Source of the DNA: a virus | Lineage: Duplodnaviria; Caudoviricetes | IMG/VR virus record: IMGVR_UViG_3300023178_000006 | DNA: 64,000 nt | Reading direction: 5' to 3' (one strand) | Part shown: in pieces, positions 8,573 to 60,321 of the stretch | Layout: every line of letters begins with the position of its first letter | How positions within the stretch are numbered: the stretch's first letter is position 1 | Notes under the pieces: model-generated | The model's database searches: none | The model's input: the letters and a program-made list of their open reading frames with translations, nothing else | Told to the model about the DNA's origin: nothing | Made by a program: the position numbers and the translations under genes

Positions 8573-8600
8573 AAGGGCATCTCGTATGCCCTTTATTCTT
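8573..8600 (+). terminator. Rho-independent terminator after the collagen fibre gene
   Basis: AAGGGCAT-ctcgt-ATGCCCTT hairpin followed by a T-rich tract. Confidence 0.7.
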
Positions 8601-8638: not shown

Positions 8639-8974
8639 ATGGCATCAAGAGCTAACATATATATCGATAAAGGTATGGACTTCAGAACAACTGTTGAGTT
8701 GTTCGACGAAGATAATGCCGAGCTTTTCCACAGTACTTATAATTTCTATGGTGGAATGAAAAAGCTATACTCAGACGCAAGCCCCGTTGCGACCTTTACA
8801 ATCGAGAAAACTGCAAATAATGACGTCACTCTGATATTGACGGATACGGATACTTCCGCTCTTAAGCCTGGCAAATACCAATATGATTTAATCATGGAAA
8901 AAACCACAGGAGAATTGTCGAAAATAGTTGAAGGCTTAGCGATTGTAGTTGATACTATTACGGAGGTTTCGTGA
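8639..8974 (+). CDS. Small virion protein, probable fibre/baseplate attachment (BppU N-terminal-like Ig fold)
   Basis: ANIYIDKGMDF...LTLILT..DT..LKPGKYQYDL....G....IVEG pattern typical of small adaptors that precede phage fibre genes. Confidence 0.5.
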   Translation: MASRANIYIDKGMDFRTTVELFDEDNAELFHSTYNFYGGMKKLYSDASPVATFTIEKTANNDVTLILTDTDTSALKPGKYQYDLIMEKTTGELSKIVEGLAIVVDTITEVS

Positions 8975-11900
8975 GTATAAAGGTTAAGGTCAAGTCCTCG
9001 AAAAGTATTCGAGCGGTACCTAAACAAGATACTCAAACGAGTATCGTAGCACCAGGAGAAAGAAAACCGGTAATCGTTCCAGATTCCGTTGTTCTTGGTA
9101 TCGATACAATTGGAGCATACGTACAGGATATTGATGCTGGCCCAGGCATAATCATTACTCCTGAAACAGACACAGAACTTTCTAATGTCGTCGTTTCTCA
9201 CGCAAATACATCTAACGAAGTAAGTACTAATAATGATGTATTAACAATTTCAAGAAATATTGACATCGACCAATTCGGTCATGTTACATCCTTTTATAAT
9301 ACAAGTTTAACTTCTTTAAACTTTACTGCTAACGGCACAGTCATTCAAGCAAATGACTTCACACTAGGTAATACATCACTTACAATTGGTGAATCTACAA
9401 ATGAAATCGTAGGTTTAAGTAATTTTAATGTTGGTGAACTTACTTTAACACAAGACGGAATATTAGGTTTAGATGATATTCGATTAGTTCCTGGCGAAGC
9501 TGATGATGTTATTAACGTCACCGACCACAGAATATCTAATCTTAAAAATCCTTTATTCCCACAAGATGCTGTTACAGTCAATTATTTAGAACAAGAATTA
9601 GGAACAGTTGGAGACCCTACAGACCCAGAAGATGTCGCAAACAAACGTTATGTAGATAATGTTCAAATTGCGATGTTGAATCGTCAAACAGTTCTAGCAG
9701 CATCGACTGCAGACTTAGGTGGTACATATACAACTGGTAATACTTCTTATTCAGACACAATTTCTTTATCTCCCGCCTCAACAATCAATATTGACGGGGT
9801 TACAGATTGGGAACTTGGTGATGGACTTTTAGTCAAAGACCAAACAAACCCAGTACAGAATGGCCGTTACGAGTTAATACAAGTTGGCGCCTTAGCTGAT
9901 GATTGGATTTTCCAGAGAAATCGGTATAACGATGAAACCTCAGAGTATGGACTTACTCTGGCCGAAATACCTGGTTCTTTCGTATTCGTAGTTGATGGTA
10001 CTCTTAACGGCCAAACTGGTTGGGTTGCAACAGTTAATGATGCAGAAACATTTGCGTTAAATACTGACGATATTATATACAAACAATTCCAAGGACATGG
10101 AACCTTTACTGATGGAAGAGGTTTAACTCTTACCGGTCCTTTAGGTACAGAATTTGAGGTAGATTATACTCAAACCTTCGATACTATTAATGGGTTGTCG
10201 GATAACTTAATTATATCATCAAATGTAGTAGATGTCAATAGTTCTGGTGGATTTATTATCCCTGTTGGTGCAACAAGTGATAGACCAACTCCAGACCAAG
10301 GAATGATTCGTTATAATACGACTGATTCAAGATTTGAAGCATATAACGGTATAGCATGGACAGGATTAGGTGGTGTAGTTGATGTTGACCAAGATACTAG
10401 AATTGTTGCTGAATCTTCACCTGGCGCTGACAATGACCAATTGCAATTCTTTACTGCAAATACAGAGGTCATGCGTCTTGAAGCAGATGGTGATTTATAC
10501 TTTGGTTCAAGTCTCAATAAATTAATTATTGATTATAATTCAGGTGATGCTACATTCAGAGGATTAGTAACCTTTGATTCTACTGGAGCAATCACCATTC
10601 CAGATGGTACAACAGCTCAAAGACCTACCGCCGTTCGCGGTATGATTCGTTTTAATATCAGTGACCAACAATTCGAAGGATATGATGGTACTGCATGGAA
10701 AGGTCTTGGTGGAGTTATTGATGTTGACCAAGATACAAAAATTACTGCAGAAGATTCACCAGGCGCAGATAATGACGAACTTAAATTCTTTACTGGTGGA
10801 ACATTAAGATATAAACTCGCACCTGATGGTGATTTCCAGTATGGTGATGGTCTTAATAAGTTTACAGTTGACTGGCAAACTGGTGATACTAACATTGCTG
10901 GAAATACAGACATTCAAGGAACATTAAATGTTGTTGGTGATACAACAATCATTGGTGACACTGACCTTACTGGTTCTTTAGAAGTTGATAGTTTAAATGT
11001 TACTGACCTAACACAAAACAGAGTATTGTTTGCAGGTGTAGATGGTGAAATAACTGATAGTAACGATTTACGTTGGGATGGTTCTACATTTACAGTTACT
11101 GGTGATACAGACATCACTGGTAATCTTACACTTGGTGGTAATATAAGAATTGGTGATGCTGATGTAGATACAATTAATGTTGTTGCAGACTTCACATCTG
11201 ACTTAGTTCCAAATGACCACTTAACATATACAATTGGTTCATTAAATAAAAACTGGAATCGAATCTTCGTATCACAAGTCAAGAGTGACTCAGGTGTAAT
11301 TACATTTGCAGAAACAGGAGCAATCACACTTCCGGTTGGTAATACAAGTGATAGACCTTCAGCTGCAACTGGTATGTTACGTTATAATACTGATGATGCA
11401 CGCTTTGAAGGATATGATGGAAGTAATTGGGCAGGTCTCGCAGGTTCAGTAATCGACGTTGACCAAGATACAAAAATTATTGCTGAATCAAGTCCTAATG
11501 CTGATAATGATGAATTACAATTCTTCACCGCTGGGAATGAAAGATTTAAGATTACTGCAAATGGTGATATTACTACCCCAGCAAATACAGATTTAACATT
11601 TACTGTATCTGGTAATATTGATGTCAGTAATACTATTATAACAGGTTTAGCGGACCCTGTCAACCCTTCTGATGCAGTTAATTTAAGATTTATTAATGAT
11701 AATTTCAGTTCAAACTTAGACATTACAGATGGTGCTAATACAGGAGTAATTGACTTACTCGATTCACCTAGAGTTTACATTGGTACAGGTTTAGAATTAG
11801 GTGCAAATACAGCTCTAGCAAATAATGAATTTGAAATTGGAATGGAAGACACCGGTGTTACTGCAGGTCTATATGGTAACGATGGATTTACTCCTCGTAT

Positions 11901-52309: not shown

Positions 52310-52338
52310 ATTATACCAAATCAAAGTGAATTTGTCAA
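52310..52338 (-). promoter_or_regulatory. Early sigma70-type promoter
   Basis: TTGACA (52338-52333), 17 nt, TGG-TATAAT (52315-52310). Confidence 0.85.
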
Positions 52339-52496: not shown

Positions 52497-52504
52497 TATA
52501 AATA
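52497..52504 (+). promoter_or_regulatory. T4-type late promoter heading the csg operon
   Basis: Exact TATAAATA 46 nt upstream of the ATG at 52550. Confidence 0.7.
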
Positions 52505-52549: not shown

Positions 52550-52846
52550 ATGGAATCAGTACTACAATTAATATCCGAGCTAGGTTTACCTATTGCTGGT
52601 GCATTAATTATGGGATTCTTCATCTTCATTATTATTAAACAAATTTTTGAAGGAATCATTGATAGCATTAATACTTTAAATATGTTCTGTGAAAGCCTAG
52701 AGAATAGAGCGAGAACTATGTCTAATGAGGTAGTTAAAATCGATTTGCTCGTGTCTAGCGCACTTGGATTAAATCCCGACATCGAGCGTATAGCTCGGGC
52801 AGAAAATTTTATTGAAGACGGAAAACTCGACGTAAGGAGAGACTAA
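52550..52846 (+). CDS. Single-TM plus coiled-coil membrane protein
   Basis: LISELGLPIAGALIMGFFIFIII helix followed by heptad-like segment; paralog of 53048. Confidence 0.65.
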   Translation: MESVLQLISELGLPIAGALIMGFFIFIIIKQIFEGIIDSINTLNMFCESLENRARTMSNEVVKIDLLVSSALGLNPDIERIARAENFIEDGKLDVRRD

Positions 52847-53061
52847 TGCTATTTTGTGGTTATCACTTCAGTTTAAGTGCTGGAGGGGATTTACTGATTT
52901 TTGACGAAGGTGACGGAGAGTTAACCTTAGAAAAGTTTGAGTGGAAACCTGGTGATGAATTCATCGCTTCTCAAACTGAAAATGGTGCTGTAACACTTAG
53001 AAGAAAAGCAGACAGAATATATAATCCAAAACAACTGGATTTATTCGATGGAAGAATTTGA
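52846..53061 (+). CDS. Hypothetical protein, 71 aa
   Basis: TAATG coupling upstream and overlap downstream. Confidence 0.55.
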   Translation: MLFCGYHFSLSAGGDLLIFDEGDGELTLEKFEWKPGDEFIASQTENGAVTLRRKADRIYNPKQLDLFDGRI

Positions 53062-53332
53062 TATTATAACACTCGTTAGTGAGTACGGGTTTCCTACAAT
53101 TATGGTGATTGGGTTAGGATATTTCGTGTACTTTGTTTATAACTTTATACAAGAGAATATTTTACCAACAATCGATAAAATGCATTTTCAATTAATCAAA
53201 GTGATTGATAGAATGAGAATGCTAGACCAGGATTTAATTAGACTGCAAGAGAAGGTAGACGTAGTTTTAAAATATAAAGAAAATGAGAAACTGAGAGAGG
53301 CAGGTGAAAAACATGATAAAAAAGATAATTGA
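53048..53332 (+). CDS. Single-TM plus coiled-coil membrane protein (paralog of 52550)
   Basis: LVSEYGFPTIMVIGLGYFVYFVY helix then coiled coil. Confidence 0.65.
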   Translation: MEEFDIITLVSEYGFPTIMVIGLGYFVYFVYNFIQENILPTIDKMHFQLIKVIDRMRMLDQDLIRLQEKVDVVLKYKENEKLREAGEKHDKKDN

Positions 53333-53819
53333 TGTAATTTTATTATCCGTTCTAACAATTGGTATTGCAAATGCTGAGCCTATTGTTCACAAATTCAAAA
53401 ATCCTAGTTTCAGTGGTGTTGGAACAGGTGCTCATTATCTCACTATTGAGAATCAAGAACATTCACGTAAGAAAGCAATCAAAGATGCATTAGATGCAGC
53501 CGAGAGAGCAGCACAACGAGAAATTGATAATTCAACATTATCAAAATTTATACGAAATTTAGAGAGTAGGATTTACGCTCAGTTAGCAAAACAATTAGTA
53601 GACAATATGTTTTCTAACGACGACCCTGTAAGATTTGGGTCCTTTGTTTTAGAAGGGTCAACAGTTACATATGAAGTTATTACAAACGCTGACGGAACAG
53701 AATTTATTAAAATGACAATTGTAGATGAAGATGGTACTACAACTGTTATTGAAATACCAATTGGTTCAGGTAACTTTGGAAGTGATGGAGATACTGGTGG
53801 GGATGGTGACGGTGGCTAA
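53313..53819 (+). CDS. csgF: Curli assembly component CsgF-like
   Basis: Signal peptide ending IANA; mature N-terminus EPIVHKFKNPSFSG resembles the CsgF F.NP.FGG motif; A..QN-like ENQE; F..NLESRI..QL...L; GSF.LEG.TV. Confidence 0.8.
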   Translation: MIKKIIDVILLSVLTIGIANAEPIVHKFKNPSFSGVGTGAHYLTIENQEHSRKKAIKDALDAAERAAQREIDNSTLSKFIRNLESRIYAQLAKQLVDNMFSNDDPVRFGSFVLEGSTVTYEVITNADGTEFIKMTIVDEDGTTTVIEIPIGSGNFGSDGDTGGDGDGG

Positions 53820-54780
53820 ACTTTTATCCGCTGTATTTTTATCACTATTATTAGCAAGTTGTGCACAGATGCCACAATGGTCTGAAGGACCAGCATATTG
53901 TGAGTATGGTGAAGGAAGATATGCACAAGGATTTAATACCGATTTTGATAATGATGGTATTATAAATGATGATGCTTTAAGTGTTGGAAAACAACTATAT
54001 ACTGGTACTCGTAAGTATATTGAAACAAAACAAATATGTGTTGAGGCACCACAAGTTGTAAGGTTACCATCATATATTGATTTGCTTAATTTACCACCTG
54101 CTAAAAATAAGCCTGTGGTTGCTGTATATCAATTCCAAGATAAAACAGGACAACGTAAAGATTCAGTTACAGGGCAAAGTTTCTCCACTGCGGTAACACA
54201 AGGTGGAACAGAATTATTAATTGACGCACTCAAAACCGCAGGTGATGGTACATGGTTTAGAGTAGTAGAAAGACAAGGTATTGATGCTTTAGTAAGAGAA
54301 CGACAAATTATTCGTTCGGGCAGAGATGAAGCTGCAAAAGCATTAGATGTTGAACCACAAAAATTAGGACCACTTTTATTTGCAGGTATGATAATCGAAG
54401 GTGGTATTATTGGATATGATAGTAATATACAAACTGGTGGACGAGGAGCAAGAACTCTTGGGATTGGATTTAGTAAATCATACAGACAAGACCAAGTCAC
54501 TGTTTCTTTAAGAGCAGTATCTGTTCTCACTGGTGAAGTACTATTAAATGTTCAAACTAAAAAGACAATTTTAAGTTATGGTTCCGGAGGAGATGTATTT
54601 AGATTCATAGAGCAAGGAACGCAATTGATAGAATATGAAGACGGTGTAGGAAATAATGAAAGTGTGACATACGCAGTACGAACAGCAATTGAAGCTGCCG
54701 TATTGGAAATGGTTTATCAAGGTAATCGTCGTGGATACTGGGAGATAGACTGGAATAAAAATGAAGAGGAAAAAGAATGA
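53803..54780 (+). CDS. csgG: Curli secretion channel CsgG-like outer-membrane lipoprotein
   Basis: Lipobox LLASC; VAVY.F.D.TGQ.K, STAVTQG....LIDALK...WF.VVER.G...L..ERQIIR, PLLFAG.IIEGGI.GYD.N..TGG.GAR.LGIG.S..YR.D.VTV.LRAV.V.TGEVL..V.T.KTILS. Confidence 0.92.
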   Translation: MVTVAKLLSAVFLSLLLASCAQMPQWSEGPAYCEYGEGRYAQGFNTDFDNDGIINDDALSVGKQLYTGTRKYIETKQICVEAPQVVRLPSYIDLLNLPPAKNKPVVAVYQFQDKTGQRKDSVTGQSFSTAVTQGGTELLIDALKTAGDGTWFRVVERQGIDALVRERQIIRSGRDEAAKALDVEPQKLGPLLFAGMIIEGGIIGYDSNIQTGGRGARTLGIGFSKSYRQDQVTVSLRAVSVLTGEVLLNVQTKKTILSYGSGGDVFRFIEQGTQLIEYEDGVGNNESVTYAVRTAIEAAVLEMVYQGNRRGYWEIDWNKNEEEKE

Positions 54781-55511
54781 ATAAAAAACTTTTAGGCCTA
54801 AGTTTAGCTTTTATTATGATTCCATTTTTAACATTTGCTCAAGCAACTGATGATAACGAAATCAACATCGAACAGGATGGTGATACTCTTACTTTGTATA
54901 TCGACCAATACGGTTACGGTAACAAAATTGGAGCTGATGATTTTAGTTCATCTTCAAGTGCTATGGTTATAACTGGTTCATCTGTAAATATGAACATTGA
55001 CCAAATTGGTAACTCAAACTTATTATTTGGTCCATTAATTGCAGATAGCTATGTTCTGAATCTATTATTTACTGGTGACAGTAACTCTTGGGATTGGGAT
55101 ATCGGTTATGTTGGTTCTTCAGATAGTTCTACAATGGATGTAGATATTACTGGTGATTCTAACACTATGGATTTTGACCAAGGATACAATGCAAGTGCGG
55201 AAAGATTGGATTTTGATTTAACAGTTATTGGAGACAGTAACATTTTTGATGTTGACATTGACGTTGACGACGCAGTTTGGAATTTCGATATTACTGGTGG
55301 AAGCAACAATATCAATACATTACAAAAGGACGGAGCGGAGCATGAGATTAACTTGACTCACGTAGGTTCTTCTGCTGATATTGATATTAACCAAATCAGT
55401 GGTACATGTCCTACAGGTGTTTCTACTTGTAATGGCATAATTACGTTGGATGTCGATAGTGAAAATGCAACAATTCAGATTAATCAAAAAGATTCATCTA
55501 ACGATTCTTAG
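54777..55511 (+). CDS. Curlin-like secreted beta-solenoid protein 1
   Basis: Sec signal peptide; repeated x-I-x-Q/T-x-G-x-x-N units (INIEQDGD, YIDQYGYGN, NIDQIGNSN, DITGDSN, TVIGDSN, DITGGSN); adjacent to csgG. Confidence 0.7.
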   Translation: MNKKLLGLSLAFIMIPFLTFAQATDDNEINIEQDGDTLTLYIDQYGYGNKIGADDFSSSSSAMVITGSSVNMNIDQIGNSNLLFGPLIADSYVLNLLFTGDSNSWDWDIGYVGSSDSSTMDVDITGDSNTMDFDQGYNASAERLDFDLTVIGDSNIFDVDIDVDDAVWNFDITGGSNNINTLQKDGAEHEINLTHVGSSADIDINQISGTCPTGVSTCNGIITLDVDSENATIQINQKDSSNDS

Positions 55512-56619
55512 CGCATTTCTTTTATTACTACCATTGGGTCTGTCTGCAGCAGACTCAATCGGTAGTATAATTGAACACAAGGGAAGTGCTTCACTTACTC
55601 GTGAACAGGGTGAAGAGCTTGTCGTGAGTGGTTCATTTATACCAGAAGTTGAAATGAACGACACGGCCGAAACAGAAAACGGTCGAATGCTTATCGAATT
55701 CTTAGATAAAGCAGAACTCAGTCTTACAGAAAACACAAAAGTATACATTGATAGAGTATACTACGACCCAGACCCAAGCAAATCAAAAATGGCAATGAGA
55801 ATGGCAATGGGAACTGCAAGGTTCGCATCAGGTCGTTTGGGTATGGTCAACAAAAATAATATAGACATACAAACACCCACAGCTACCATATCAGTTCGTG
55901 GAACAGATTTTACAACAACCATAGATGAATTAGGAAGGTCACTGGTGATACTTTTACCAGACCAATATGGTAATCCATCTGGCACAATAGAAGTTTCAAA
56001 TTTAGGTGGTACGATTGTCTTAGAAGAGGCTTACGCGGCCACTATGGTATCTACATTAGATAGTCCACCGACTCCTAAAGTACAAATAACTAATATAACA
56101 CCAGCGATGATTGATAACATGTTTATCGTTTCTCCTCCACCTGAAGTGAAAGAAGCAATTGACGAAGAAATGCAAGATGACGCAAATGAAGACCAAGGAT
56201 TACTTGACATCGACTTTTTAGAATTCAATGAATTAGAAAAAGATTATCTTGAAGATGACGCATTAGAATTTACTGAACTAGACATTGATTTTCTTGATGT
56301 TGATTTCTTAACAGACGTTTTAGATGTCGTTGAAGAATTAATTAAAACAACTGCAGCACTTGATGATAGAGCTATCTCAGGTACATCTTTAGGAGCTCAA
56401 CTTAAAGGTGCAGCATTTGGACTTAATGCTGATTCTCAATATAATATTTACGAAGACAGTGGTAAGATTATATTTTATAGAAACGTAGAAGGTACGATAC
56501 AACTCGCATTTGCGGTAGATGCTTCAGTTAAAATCGATACTGAAGTGGACGGATATTCTGGTATCATTGACTTGAACCAAGGTCAAGATTCTGTAATAGT
56601 AATTAAACAAGGTGGATAA
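55465..56619 (+). CDS. FecR-domain periplasmic protein with an acidic linker
   Basis: Signal peptide; D...T.NGR..I.F.D...L.L.ENT...ID...G..RF.SG...I.TPTATI.VRGTDF motif of the FecR domain. Confidence 0.8.
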   Translation: MQQFRLIKKIHLTILSAFLLLLPLGLSAADSIGSIIEHKGSASLTREQGEELVVSGSFIPEVEMNDTAETENGRMLIEFLDKAELSLTENTKVYIDRVYYDPDPSKSKMAMRMAMGTARFASGRLGMVNKNNIDIQTPTATISVRGTDFTTTIDELGRSLVILLPDQYGNPSGTIEVSNLGGTIVLEEAYAATMVSTLDSPPTPKVQITNITPAMIDNMFIVSPPPEVKEAIDEEMQDDANEDQGLLDIDFLEFNELEKDYLEDDALEFTELDIDFLDVDFLTDVLDVVEELIKTTAALDDRAISGTSLGAQLKGAAFGLNADSQYNIYEDSGKIIFYRNVEGTIQLAFAVDASVKIDTEVDGYSGIIDLNQGQDSVIVIKQGG

Positions 56620-56627
56620 ATAATAAA

Positions 56628-56852
56628 ATGGAAAAAGAAATACTTAAAATAATTGCAAATCGATGTGATTGCTCTTTAGAAGAAGTCACAAACGAAAAAC
56701 ATATCGTAGATGATTTAAACGCGGATTCATTAAGTGTAGTAGAAATCATTATGGACTTAGAAGCCGAATTTAATATTCAAATTACTGATGAAGAAGCCGA
56801 AGAATTATTAACAGTAAAACAGATTAAAGAATATGTCGAGGTGAATACCTAA
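56628..56852 (+). CDS. acpP: Acyl carrier protein
   Basis: DLNADSLSVVEIIMDLEAEFNIQITDEEAEELLTVKQI with the DSL phosphopantetheine-attachment serine. Confidence 0.9.
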   Translation: MEKEILKIIANRCDCSLEEVTNEKHIVDDLNADSLSVVEIIMDLEAEFNIQITDEEAEELLTVKQIKEYVEVNT

Positions 56853-57226
56853 TGGCAAGTATACATTATCTCAAAAGAACAGCTGGTGAAGCGGTCGTAA
56901 AGATTTACGAAACAAGTAGCAGCGGCGATACAATAGAATTAGATATTGCTAATTTAATTTCAGATGGTCAAACATTTGATGCTAATTCAGCTAACGTCAC
57001 AATTAAAGAAATCTTTTGGGGTGTAAAACATAACCACTATATTGACGTATCTCGTAAAGAACGAGGTGGTTCTAATGTTCATGGTCATTATTATTTAGTC
57101 AATGCAGGTTCATATGATTACGATGGATTTGTAGATGATGTATATTCAGAAAGAAACATACAAGTATTACTTGATGGACCTGGTCATGTCATACTTAAAT
57201 TAAATAAAACAGCTGGTTATAGTTGA
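56852..57226 (+). CDS. Hypothetical protein, 124 aa
   Basis: TAATG coupling to acp; beta-rich. Confidence 0.6.
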   Translation: MASIHYLKRTAGEAVVKIYETSSSGDTIELDIANLISDGQTFDANSANVTIKEIFWGVKHNHYIDVSRKERGGSNVHGHYYLVNAGSYDYDGFVDDVYSERNIQVLLDGPGHVILKLNKTAGYS

Positions 57227-57963
57227 TGGACGAATTTGATAGAAAATTAGATAAATGGTTATTAGGTTTCAGTTGGTGCCTATTGGGAATGTATTTTCTT
57301 TTGGCAACTGGTAAAGCTTATGCAGATAATGTTATAACCATTGAACAAACTGGTGATAATTTAAATTTAGAGATTCAGCAATATGGTGCTGATAACGAAA
57401 TTAAAATGTTAGACCAATATTCGTATATTAACGCGTCATCGTTAGATTTATTAGTTGTTCAATATAATACTGCAGGTAATGATAACACAATAGTATTTGA
57501 TGAAATCAGTGGAACAGGTAACGAATTTAAATTGGGTCAAGGTGTTGCTTTTGATAACACCACACAAGGTTGGAACTATGATGGTGCCGAAGGCGGTGGT
57601 CATTATATGGAAATAGATTTATATGGTAATGATAACTTTGTTGAATGGCATCAAACAAATCAAAGTGATGCAACTGACGGACATGATTTTAACTTACATG
57701 TTGCTGGGTCTGATAATTGGATAGATGGAAGACAACAATCTTCAGGCGCAAAAGAAGCAAACATTACACTTTATAATTCAGACAACGTTTTAACATTTAG
57801 ACAGAAAGGAGCTAACGCAACTCACTCAGCAAATATTACCTTAGATGGTATTTACGGAACGACAGCAACTATTAGACAAAATAGCACAACCAATCAAACA
57901 TACAATTTATCAGTGGATTGTTATACAGTTGGTGGTTGCTCAGTGAATGTGCTACAAGAATAA
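57223..57963 (+). CDS. Curlin-like secreted beta-solenoid protein 2
   Basis: Signal peptide ending AYA; repeats ITIEQTGDN, EIQQYGADN, DLYGNDN, HVAGSDN, TFRQKGAN; C-terminal Cys pair. Confidence 0.65.
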   Translation: MMDEFDRKLDKWLLGFSWCLLGMYFLLATGKAYADNVITIEQTGDNLNLEIQQYGADNEIKMLDQYSYINASSLDLLVVQYNTAGNDNTIVFDEISGTGNEFKLGQGVAFDNTTQGWNYDGAEGGGHYMEIDLYGNDNFVEWHQTNQSDATDGHDFNLHVAGSDNWIDGRQQSSGAKEANITLYNSDNVLTFRQKGANATHSANITLDGIYGTTATIRQNSTTNQTYNLSVDCYTVGGCSVNVLQE

Positions 57964-58277
57964 TGCAAGAGTTAGATGATTTTGGAAATCCAGTAGGAAC
58001 ATTATATCCGGGTGATGAAGGTTGCCCTCAAGATATGATTTGTTTAACCGAAGAAGGATTTAACCAAATGCTTTCTGAAGCTGATATGTATTATAATACA
58101 GAAACATTCCAAGTTGAGCCGATGGGCGATGCTGAAGCAATTATAGATTTCACAACGGATTTATTGTTCTTGGATATTTGGACTATTTTAAATATGGCAG
58201 TACCATTAACAATTTTCGCAGTATATGGTTTAACATTATATGCAGCAGTAAAGTATATCCAAAAGAAGTTTAGTTAA
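57963..58277 (+). CDS. Small membrane protein with a C-terminal TM helix
   Basis: ATG at 57963 (TAATG coupling); acidic N-terminus and hydrophobic C-terminus. Confidence 0.55.
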   Translation: MQELDDFGNPVGTLYPGDEGCPQDMICLTEEGFNQMLSEADMYYNTETFQVEPMGDAEAIIDFTTDLLFLDIWTILNMAVPLTIFAVYGLTLYAAVKYIQKKFS

Positions 58278-58278
58278 A

Positions 58279-60321
58279 ATGAAATGGTTAACAAAGTGGT
58301 GGACGGTATTATTCACCATTGCTGGTTTTTCAGCGTTACAAATATCAAACCCAAATTTTATTCAAAGTATAGAGTATTCTTATTATGACTATCTCCATTC
58401 AAAAAAGGAAAAAATTGCGTCGGAGGATATCGTCCTCGTCAACATTGACGAAAGAGCTATCAGAGCACAAGGCCAATATCCTTGGCCTAGGGGGAACATT
58501 GCTGATTTCATTAATGCTGGTCCTGCTGATTCTCTTTATGTCTTAAACATAATATATTCTGAAGAAGATAGATTTGGTGAAGATAACGAACTTGCAGAAG
58601 CACTGGCCAATAGAGCTGTTGTATTATCATCAGCACCCACACAACAAACATCTGGTGGAATAGGAACCTTTGTAGGTGTTGCCACTTTTGGAGAACAAGA
58701 TGAAAATTGGTTGTATGAATTTCCAGGCCTTTTGTACCCTATTGAATCTCTTTCTAATTGGGTTTTTGGTGTTGGGGCCACCGTTGCTATTCCTGATGAA
58801 CCAACAGGTGTCGTGCGAAGAGCACCCCTCGTTGTTAAAGCAGCCGGGAATCCTTATCCATCTCTCGCCCTTGACACACTACGAGTGTACACCGGAGAAC
58901 CAAGCTATCAAATGAAAGTAGGCACCAATGGTGTCGAATGGATTCGCATGGGTCGACAAGACCCAATCACTACAAACTCCTTCGCAGAAGTCCCTATAGC
59001 TTTCTGGAATGAATTCGAACAAGTCAGTATATTAGACCCATTACCCGAAGGTAAAGTTTTAATCTTTGGTATTACAGCTGAAGGATATGCTAATCCAGTT
59101 GCAACCCCATTGGGTGCAGTGTATCCCCACGAAGTTCAAGGTCATTTAATTCAGACCGTTCTTTCAGGAGTCGAAATACAGATTCCCGACTGGAAGCCAA
59201 TAGCCGAGCTCGGTCTTCTGGTGTTATTGAGTCTAGGTATCCTTGGAGCGGTCTATATCTTGCCCATAACTCTTGGGGTGATAAAGAGTCTAATTCTGAT
59301 TTGCGGTTCTTATGGAGTATCATTGTATCTCTGGAATGATGCTTTAATCTTTGTTGACGCGACCTTAAGTTCATTTGCTTCCTTAGTAGTTTTTGCCCAA
59401 TCAAGTTTTAACAAGTATTTTATCACATTTTTAGAGAAACGTCAACTAGCAAAACAGTTCGCTGGTTATGCTTCTCCTACAGTCGTTCGTTTACTCCAAG
59501 AGAATCCTTCTCTCGTTAAAGAGGGAATGAAAAAAGAAATTAGTATTTGTTTTTCTGATTTAAGAGGATTTACACCACTGGGTGAAAGCTTCGGAGATGA
59601 CGTACAAGGATTAACGAAGTTAATGAATGGGTATATGGATTCAATCACTGAGCCTGTCCTTAACGCTGATGGAATGATTATAAAGTATATAGGCGATGCT
59701 TCGATGCACATACACAATGCGCCTATTGACGACCCTGAACATCCTAAAACTGCAGTACAAACTGGAATCAATATGCTAAGGAGTGTAGAAAAATTCAATG
59801 AAAAGATTACAGCAGAAGGTCGACCACCAATTGGCATGGGGGCTGGGATTAACACTGGTCTTGGTTATCTTGGTGAGATGGGTTCTACAGAACGACACAG
59901 TTATGATGTACTTGGTGACAGCGTTTCAACTGCTGCACGAATTGAGTCAAAATGTAAAGAATATGGTTGCTTATTATTAGTTGGCGAAGAAACAGTTAAA
60001 CGATGTTCTCCTAATGATTTCTTTTTCCTTAAAGTAGACGACCTTGCAGTAAAAGGAAAAACAGTAGGAATTGGAATATACACAGTATTAGACCTTGATA
60101 AGAATAAATATATTAAACCGGCCGAGATGCATGAAGCAATGCATCAGAATTACCGTAAACAAAACTTCGATAAAGCTATTAAAATATGTAACGACCTTAT
60201 GGAATGTTTTGAAGGTCAGATGGAAGGTTACTACAAGATGTGGATTGAGCGTTGCGAATATATGAAAACGCAAGATTTACCGAAGGATTGGAACGGTGTC
60301 TTTATTGCTACGACTAAATAA
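58279..60321 (+). CDS. CHASE2-domain class III adenylate/guanylate cyclase
   Basis: N-terminal TM; CHASE2 motifs IV.V.IDE.AI...GQ.PWPR and DG/TGVVRR.PL; TM bundle; cyclase motifs FSDLRGFT, KYIGDA, GINTG...G.MGS..R..Y.V.GD.V..AAR.E. Confidence 0.92.
   Translation: MKWLTKWWTVLFTIAGFSALQISNPNFIQSIEYSYYDYLHSKKEKIASEDIVLVNIDERAIRAQGQYPWPRGNIADFINAGPADSLYVLNIIYSEEDRFGEDNELAEALANRAVVLSSAPTQQTSGGIGTFVGVATFGEQDENWLYEFPGLLYPIESLSNWVFGVGATVAIPDEPTGVVRRAPLVVKAAGNPYPSLALDTLRVYTGEPSYQMKVGTNGVEWIRMGRQDPITTNSFAEVPIAFWNEFEQVSILDPLPEGKVLIFGITAEGYANPVATPLGAVYPHEVQGHLIQTVLSGVEIQIPDWKPIAELGLLVLLSLGILGAVYILPITLGVIKSLILICGSYGVSLYLWNDALIFVDATLSSFASLVVFAQSSFNKYFITFLEKRQLAKQFAGYASPTVVRLLQENPSLVKEGMKKEISICFSDLRGFTPLGESFGDDVQGLTKLMNGYMDSITEPVLNADGMIIKYIGDASMHIHNAPIDDPEHPKTAVQTGINMLRSVEKFNEKITAEGRPPIGMGAGINTGLGYLGEMGSTERHSYDVLGDSVSTAARIESKCKEYGCLLLVGEETVKRCSPNDFFFLKVDDLAVKGKTVGIGIYTVLDLDKNKYIKPAEMHEAMHQNYRKQNFDKAIKICNDLMECFEGQMEGYYKMWIERCEYMKTQDLPKDWNGVFIATTK

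Follow-up and report, generated by a model that had tools for sequence, protein, structure and literature searches.

Two candidate curlin-type beta-solenoid proteins in the type VIII secretion module of an uncultured marine T4-like phage

The DNA analyzed here (IMG/VR record IMGVR_UViG_3300023178_000006; 64,000 nucleotides, hereafter the window) comes from an uncultured marine T4-like myophage and carries on its + strand a phage counterpart of the type VIII (curli) secretion module, in which two genes encode acidic, repetitive proteins with apparent export signals, termed here Cur1 and Cur2. Cur1 (54777..55511, 244 residues) is a conserved curlin-like predicted beta-solenoid and the candidate core substrate of the module; Cur2 (57226..57963, 245 residues counted from its ATG) is hypervariable and is the more canonical curlin-like solenoid of the two. 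Both lie in a packed rightward block with frequent gene overlaps that runs from CsgF and CsgG through Cur1, a FecR-domain protein, an acyl carrier protein (ACP), an open reading frame (ORF) of 124 residues, Cur2 and a small membrane protein to a CHASE2 adenylate cyclase. As expected of curlins, they are encoded together with the CsgG pore and CsgF, the genes of which lie directly upstream and overlap, and this linkage is kept in 80 loci. The CsgF homologue (53304..53819) matches Pfam CsgF with an E-value (E) of 1.5e-16, and the CsgG homologue, a lipoprotein with the lipobox LLASC (53803..54780; its start taken to be Met27 in the ORF listed from 53725), matches Pfam CsgG (E 4.5e-56) and NCBIfam CsgG (1.3e-54). 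The gene order recurs in 80 IMG/VR contigs as well as in Pelagibacter phage HTVC008M and Methylophilales phage Melnitz, and Cur2 is present in 52 of the 54 loci that span Cur1 to the cyclase.

The ATG start of cur1 overlaps the stop codon of csgG (ATGA), and residues 1-23 of its product (54777..54845) read as a Sec signal peptide cleaved after AQA, at the junction between MNKKLLGLSLAFIMIPFLTFAQA and TDD; the predicted local distance difference test (pLDDT) of the AlphaFold2 model stays below 50 over this segment. For Cur2, the listed start is a TTG at 57223, but the ATG at 57226, which forms a TGATG overlap with the upstream stop codon, is the likelier one; counted from it, residues 1-33 (57226..57324) read as a Sec signal peptide cleaved after AYA, directly before DN, and residues 3-27 are helical in the AlphaFold2 model. 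By reading, the n-, h- and AxA regions of the Sec signal expected of a curlin are present in both proteins. The mature forms have isoelectric points (pI) of 4.05 (Cur1, with 34 Asp among 221 residues) and 4.08 (Cur2), and the motif phi-x-phi-x-Q occurs six times in Cur1 and seven times in Cur2 as against 0.7 and 1.2 times in shuffled sequences, none of the 2000 shuffles reaching the observed count. An earlier sequence-only reading of this locus had credited both ORFs with Sec signals and acidic repeats of the x-I-x-Q-x-G-x-x-N style, and the pI values near 4 and the curlin-style phi-x-phi-x-Q / G-x-x-N repeats, with counts above those of the shuffles, bear it out. Its further remark that Gln is replaced by Thr or hydrophobic residues in Cur1, a protein with an 11-residue periodicity (z 5.3), is true of the middle coils, which are rich in Asp and Thr and read ITG, FTG, ITG, VIG, ITG and HVG before the turn Gly in place of Gln; the first coil and the last two coils keep the curlin Gln kernel. 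Cur2 retains a Gln ladder (Q52, Q79, Q170, Q193, Q218 and Q244) that is invariant in the Cur2 alignment. When the two proteins are compared with each other, the common part is limited to the signal peptide and the first coil (hhalign probability 99.4, 75 columns), the shared coil having the pattern DDN-x-I-x-I-E-Q-x-G-D-x-L-x-L-x-I-D-Q-x-G-Y-x-N.

The relationship to curlins was assessed with family profiles. Pfam Curlin_rpt (PF07012) is matched at E<0.01 by 42 of 52 Cur1 homologues and 19 of 49 Cur2 homologues, and its curated cut-off of 20.7 bits is exceeded by HTVC008M gp018 (33.1 bits), Melnitz gp101 (26) and Melnitz gp103 (21.8). Cur1 of the window itself matches NCBIfam CsgA with an E of 3e-5, and a profile search of the PDB with Cur2 ranks the curlin 8C50 first, if weakly (E 0.035). 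In hhalign comparisons with Escherichia coli CsgA and CsgB, probabilities span 6-85%, both phage profiles scoring slightly better on CsgB (77% for Cur1, 85% for Cur2) at what is still low probability, which assigns neither protein a role. The link to curlins is firmer at the level of the family than for the window's own proteins. Searching the phage collection with Cur2 by tblastn gave no match at E 1e-3, despite the existence of positional orthologues, and the 120 matches listed in a Cur2 profile search are marine metagenome proteins only, with no named bacterial relative among them. Among genome contigs, homologues of Cur1 (56-71% identical) occur only on those of metagenome-assembled genomes (MAGs) labelled Poseidonia (an archaeon), Sphingobacteriales, Rhodobacteraceae, Synechococcus, Planctomycetaceae and Flavobacteriales. 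These taxa are mutually unrelated; the contigs are most likely those of mis-binned phages, and we rejected them as evidence of bacterial homologues.

AlphaFold2 models built from alignments of 52 (Cur1) and 49 (Cur2) sequences have, for both proteins, a pLDDT of 80 and a predicted template modelling score of 0.77, and are all-beta as far as the last residues. Both proteins are predicted to be beta-solenoids with open ends and two strands per coil, and reading the sequences for their coil register gives about nine coils of 22-26 residues. In an exhaustive alignment to 48,161 PDB representatives, the top matches were SufD, SufB and SmsB, with Z 15-17 for Cur1 and 13-14 for Cur2 and a root-mean-square deviation (rmsd) of 2.9-4.1 Å over about 190-207 residues; the best SufD-type matches reach Z 16-17 for Cur1 and Z 13.9 for Cur2. 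Ordinary three-sided beta-helices scored lower, at Z 10-13 for Cur1 and, by a smaller margin, 8-12 for Cur2. The SufD helix is flattened, each turn consisting of two strands (PMC6006206), and the likeness to it agrees with the coil register read from the sequences. The curli subunit CsgA of 8C50 is level with the top matches of Cur2 (Z 13.3, 181 residues, 18% identity). Foldseek against the PDB returned no match at E <= 0.001 for either model, the weak top rows being beta-helices, and a shape search of the ESM Atlas found generic beta-helix or beta-repeat clusters only. A complex prediction with three copies of mature Cur1 (score 0.21, mark 0.42) is evidence neither way. That curlin-related, secreted beta-solenoids are encoded beside CsgG and CsgF, as the sequence-only reading had proposed, finds support in these models, in the Curlin_rpt matches of the homologues and in the orthologues above the cut-off; an absence of any predicted solenoid together with a lack of similarity to curlin profiles would have spoken against it, and instead solenoids are predicted and similarity to curlin profiles is seen.

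Each protein contains one cysteine pair: C211-x6-C218 in Cur1 (CPTGVSTC, 55407..55430), in the arc before the last coil (loop 208-218 of the model), and C232-x5-C238 in Cur2 (CYTVGGC, 57919..57939), which closes the last arc (loop 233-237). Both had previously been described as short C-terminal pairs; the pairs are real, but the placement fails for Cur1, in which a complete last coil of 26 residues follows. The Cur1 pair precedes the last coil in all 120 database and all 51 IMG/VR close homologues, and C211 is an invariant column of the Cur1 alignment. The Cur2 pair is found in 173 of 175 homologues, the two exceptions looking truncated or chimeric, and both of its cysteines are among just 18 invariant columns in an alignment whose mean identity is 41%. 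The wider Cur1 superfamily comprises 234 clusters at 50% identity; among the 53 full-length representatives scored for cysteines, 7 have the pair before the last coil, 10 in mid-protein and 13 at the extreme C-terminus, and 21 lack it; all five representatives with contigs examined occur in phage-like CsgF-CsgG-X-FecR-cyclase contexts. This distribution indicates that the pair is not indispensable for Cur1-type proteins generally. No C-terminal cysteine pair is present in 11 curlin-repeat ORFs found in five of 301 sampled alphaproteobacterial genomes, and E. coli CsgA and CsgB are, by reading, free of cysteine. The models put both pairs within or at the edges of a lateral loop that connects strands, and regular strands follow as far as the C-terminus. 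We therefore depart from the earlier suggestion that the proteins may be disulfide-capped, which is unsupported because the models place the cysteines in lateral arcs and not over an end, with no end cap predicted. The pair is read here as a putative disulfide staple of an arc, gained repeatedly within the phage family. A metal site was also considered and rejected, a lone C-x5-6-C in a secreted protein being more likely a disulfide.

Comparison across loci suggests that Cur1 and Cur2 differ in their standing within the module. Over 64 loci, mean identity to the window is 70% for Cur1, 73% for CsgG and 48% for Cur2 (range 30-96%), and Cur1 co-varies with CsgG (r 0.87). Cur2 varies in length among loci and occupies the variable slot of the cluster, which also takes the ACP, the 124-residue ORF and other inserts, and distant modules keep the Cur1 type without any Cur2. 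The Cur2 positional orthologue of HTVC008M, gp018 (positions 8765-10090 of the HTVC008M locus, 441 residues), has an N-terminal PA14 domain (27.7 bits) followed by the curlin repeats that score 33.1 bits and the same C-terminal cysteine-pair motif; the arrangement resembles a lectin-type head carried by a curlin stalk. Together, the identities, the variable slot, the PA14 fusion and the modules without Cur2 argue for Cur1 as the obligatory substrate and for Cur2 as an exposed accessory. This division, as drawn from the sequences, assigns no nucleator: which of the two proteins nucleates, if either does, is not shown by it, and they may or may not form the subunit/nucleator pair that the sequence-only reading put forward.

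Around the two curlin-like genes, the cluster contains further components. The gene for the FecR-domain periplasmic protein (55465..56619; Pfam FecR, 2.8e-9) overlaps the 3' end of cur1 by 47 nucleotides, and its start Met at 55465 is invariant in the alignment of FecR homologues. At its C-terminus (56560-56619), this protein has a curlin-like strand after a Gly/Asp turn, as in GQDSVIVIKQGG, GEDILIYINQVN and GQENAITINQTN; the strand, present in 52 of 52 homologues, resembles the last strands of Cur1 and Cur2 and holds the same position across related loci. Next comes the ACP (56628..56852; NCBIfam ACP, 1.5e-21), a facultative insert found at the corresponding place in 4 of 80 related loci only, followed by the 124-residue protein of unassigned function (56852..57226), an insert specific to the window (0 of 80 related loci) that belongs to a purely viral ESM Atlas cluster of 367 members; no acyltransferase or synthase partner is seen near this pair of inserts (56628-57226). 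Coupled to the cur2 stop codon is the gene for a small protein with a C-terminal membrane anchor (57963..58277), present in 18 of the 54 loci spanning Cur1 to the cyclase and also carrying a C-x5-C pair (CPQDMIC), and the block continues with a CHASE2 sensor fused to an adenylate/guanylate cyclase (58279..60321; Pfam CHASE2, 1.4e-28; Guanylate_cyc, 2.6e-16). No PHROGs family was matched by Cur1, Cur2, the 124-residue ORF or the small membrane protein, and Pfam and NCBIfam scans found no CsgE, CsgC or CsgD in the module. The CsgG homologue has an extension of about 90 residues between its lipobox and the CsgG domain (53803-54150) that is absent from E. coli CsgG and contains two cysteines and a DxDxDG-like acidic motif, FNTDFDNDGIIND, with a weak match to Excalibur (E 0.46). 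Upstream of csgF lie two small paralogous proteins, each with an N-terminal membrane helix and both assigned to phrog_18771 (52550-52846 and 53048-53332, + strand; PHROGs); the pair precedes csgF in nearly all related loci and probably belongs to the module.

As regards expression, a motif scan found a T4-type late-promoter-like box, TATAAATA, at the head of the rightward cluster (52497..52504, + strand). Boxes of this sequence lie at 8600, 26273, 30213, 38657, 42761, 43959, 45754 and 52497, 8 of 8 on the + strand and all in short gaps directly 5' of + strand genes, namely structural genes and those of the curli cluster. The number of boxes in the window is not above chance, and their placement is consistent with T4-type late promoters. 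Within the cluster, no intergenic terminator-like site on the + strand lies 5' of the cyclase gene. On the minus strand, a perfect sigma-70 consensus promoter (TTGACA, 17 nucleotides, TATAAT with TG; 52310-52338) points leftward and marks a divergent boundary between a leftward block of small genes and the rightward curli cluster. In four RNA libraries, there are contigs that match cur1 with 0-1 differences and that reach the ACP-ORF junction and cur2 as well. Their coverage of the cluster has holes (55604-55870 and 58541-59074 are examples), to which no meaning is attached, and their support for transcription is weak because DNA carry-over is possible. Over the major capsid region, the window shares about 77% DNA identity with Melnitz and HTVC008M, its cyclase gene is 71% identical to the Melnitz counterpart, and the phage is placed by sequence in the HTVC008M/Melnitz group.

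Overall, we consider it fairly probable that Cur1 and Cur2 are two curlin-repeat (CsgA/CsgB-type) substrates of a phage type VIII (curli) module. Taken separately, their nature as curlin-type substrates for type VIII secretion can be held with good confidence, whereas the odds that they go on to form fibres are about even. From gene content and order, family relations, conservation and the predicted fold, we infer a secretion route, disulfide formation, polymerisation and distinct roles for the two proteins. The module would be expressed late in infection, and each protein would cross the inner membrane by Sec, after which a periplasmic oxidase would close its single cysteine pair into a loop of 5-6 residues and the chain would pass in threaded form through the CsgG/CsgF pore of the phage. 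Once outside the cell, it would adopt a flat beta-solenoid fold, with about nine coils of two strands each. Cur1 would most likely be the core subunit, stacking head to tail into a curli-like fibre or a surface layer, and Cur2 most likely an exposed accessory subunit, whether as tip, adhesin or alternative unit of the fibre, that may join through the N-terminal coil it has in common with Cur1. The disulfide would staple a lateral arc of the C-terminal part and may stabilise that end without capping it.

Several observations weigh against this proposal. The window's own proteins fall below the Curlin_rpt cut-off (Cur1 18.8 bits, Cur2 15.7 bits), and a profile search of the PDB with the Cur1 alignment gave no match at E <= 1. 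The Gln/Asn kernel is confined to the end coils of Cur1, and an Asp content of 15% is unlike enteric CsgA. The superposition of Cur2 on 8C50 is poor (rmsd 8.8 Å, as against 2.9 Å for the right-handed SufD helix), and for Cur1 the 50 best structural matches listed do not include this curli CsgA, an omission that does not in itself exclude a likeness. Since the cysteine pair is moved or missing within the Cur1 superfamily, it cannot be essential to the mechanism. Finally, no phage-induced fibres or clumping were seen in Melnitz-infected cells (PMC9004378). Part of the evidence would also suit monomeric, acidic surface proteins that bind Ca2+ or Mg2+ and are shown via CsgG/CsgF as an adhesin or coat with no amyloid, altering the infected-cell surface, for example for superinfection exclusion or particle attachment. 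Both proteins are strongly acidic, rich in Asp and marked by recurring GDSN turns, a Ca2+-dependent beta-helical antifreeze protein and adhesin-type beta-helices (Z 10-13) are among the structural matches, and Cur2, one orthologue of which has a PA14 domain, is hypervariable, as exposed receptor-like proteins often are. Such matches are, however, generic for beta-helices and rank below the SufD-type ones, no cell-anchoring element is evident in Cur1 or Cur2, and the curlin kernel at both ends of Cur1, together with the open ends, is a better fit to stacking; we regard monomeric display as unlikely, if the most credible of the alternatives.

In another conceivable role, the solenoids would not polymerise but would serve FecR and CHASE2: Cur1 or both proteins would bind the FecR protein, or would stall in CsgG by the disulfide loop, and the state of the pore or surface would be reported to the cyclase, setting cyclic AMP (cAMP) late in infection. 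The cur1 and FecR genes are always adjacent and overlapping, distant modules keep CsgF-CsgG-Cur1-FecR-cyclase while dispensing with Cur2, and the FecR-like protein ends, in 52 of 52 homologues, in a curlin-like strand of the form I-x-I-x-Q-x-N/G. The lack of CsgE and CsgC, seen in the scans here and in PMC9599517, and the lack of fibres with Melnitz (PMC9004378) would also fit. On the other side, hhalign detects no profile similarity between the FecR alignment and either curlin alignment, the predicted solenoid ends are open, and the Cur1 cysteine pair is mobile or absent in relatives, unlike a fixed stopper. FecR-CHASE2 pairs are, moreover, self-sufficient in bacteria that have no curlin at all, which counts against such a role, and we consider it quite improbable. 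The sequence-only suggestion of a ligand or plug for the CsgG-FecR relay is neither borne out nor contradicted. Slightly less probable still is a related possibility, namely that the proteins are a tether or stopper and a signalling ligand rather than fibre subunits, the disulfide loop holding the last coil of Cur1 or Cur2 in or at the CsgG/CsgF pore or presenting it to FecR; if true, this would couple passage through the phage pore to the CHASE2 cyclase and to the cAMP of the dying host. Last, Cur1 and Cur2 might be decoration or fibre proteins of the virion, their adjacency to CsgG and CsgF being incidental. The late-promoter-like box at the head of the cluster and the frequency of beta-helix folds in phage tail spikes would agree with this. 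Both proteins, however, have cleavable Sec signals that T4-like virion proteins do not need, neither matches a structural PHROG family, and the linkage to CsgG and CsgF is strict in both myo- and podoviruses (PMC9599517); a place in the virion is very improbable.

Earlier papers described CsgF and CsgG only, with the speculation that CsgA and CsgB might be replaced by neighbouring ORFs (PMC7029224). Wittmers et al. (2022, mSystems; PMC9599517) then reported a pelagiphage type VIII module in podo- and myoviruses that always includes CsgF, CsgG and a curli repeat protein, with FecR next and often a second curli repeat gene ("CsgA/B") and an adenylate cyclase, found transcripts of the module in Pacific metatranscriptomes, and estimated that phage curli modules make up about 0.1% of assembled viral proteins. 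Because the module has already been described there, our finding is a rediscovery on a new phage, and the overall picture of the system is unchanged by it. Melnitz was said to lack csgA and csgB (PMC9004378), whereas its GenBank record, by the same authors, gives gp101 and gp103 the name curlin associated repeat protein, and each of the two scores above the Curlin_rpt cut-off; our analysis supports the presence of curlin genes, a point on which PMC9004378 disagrees with PMC9599517 and GenBank. The core/accessory division, the PA14 fusion and the conserved cysteine staple are modest additions. PMC9599517 makes no mention of cysteine, disulfide or a solenoid model, and the conserved cysteine pair, for which no mention was found in the literature, is the only new detail relative to the published module. 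Being invariant, and not found in a small sample of bacterial curlins, the pair offers a simple, testable handle. From an ecological point of view, phage curli modules are abundant in the ocean and may bring their hosts a surface function that is missing from SAR11 and OM43 cells.

Compared with the module of PMC9599517, the window has the same order of CsgF, CsgG, curlin-repeat protein, FecR, second curlin-repeat protein and adenylate cyclase, likewise in a marine phage; it differs in the ACP and the 124-residue ORF added between FecR and Cur2. Published podovirus modules are said to have histidine kinases upstream, whereas none was found upstream of the cluster here, which has the two phrog_18771 membrane proteins instead. 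HTVC008M gp016 ("curlin minor subunit CsgB") and gp018 and Melnitz gp101 and gp103 are positional orthologues in the same cluster. Of these, gp016 is 32% identical to Cur1. The cysteine pair of gp016 and gp101 lies in mid-protein, near residue 100, and not before the last coil as in Cur1; Melnitz gp103 and HTVC008M gp018 end like Cur2 (Y-x-L-x3-C-x4-5-C-x-V-x-V-x-Q), the PA14 domain of gp018 being an extra that the window's Cur2 does not have. The SufD/SufB/SmsB core (1VH4, 5AWF, 9H78) is the best structural match of both models (Z 14-17, rmsd 2.9-3.6 Å over 190-200 residues), but these are proteins of cytoplasmic Fe-S assembly with helical flanking domains, 7-10% identity and no common repeat motif, and the likeness is one of architecture only. 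E. coli CsgA and CsgB differ in having five coils to the roughly nine of the phage proteins and a Gly-rich N22 segment that these lack, whereas a pI of about 4, the loss of Gln from the middle coils of Cur1 and one conserved cysteine pair set the phage proteins apart; the enteric system also includes the CsgE, CsgC and CsgD that are missing from the phage module, and sequence similarity is remote. On the other hand, Cur1 and Cur2 have in common with E. coli CsgA and CsgB a Sec signal, phi-x-phi-x-Q / G-x-x-N repeats, adjacency to csgG and csgF, predicted two-strand coils and the occurrence of two paralogues per cluster, and the CsgA of Pontibacter korlensis (8C50; Sleutel et al. 2023, PMC10192328), which is matched by Cur2, is likewise a long, multi-repeat curlin.

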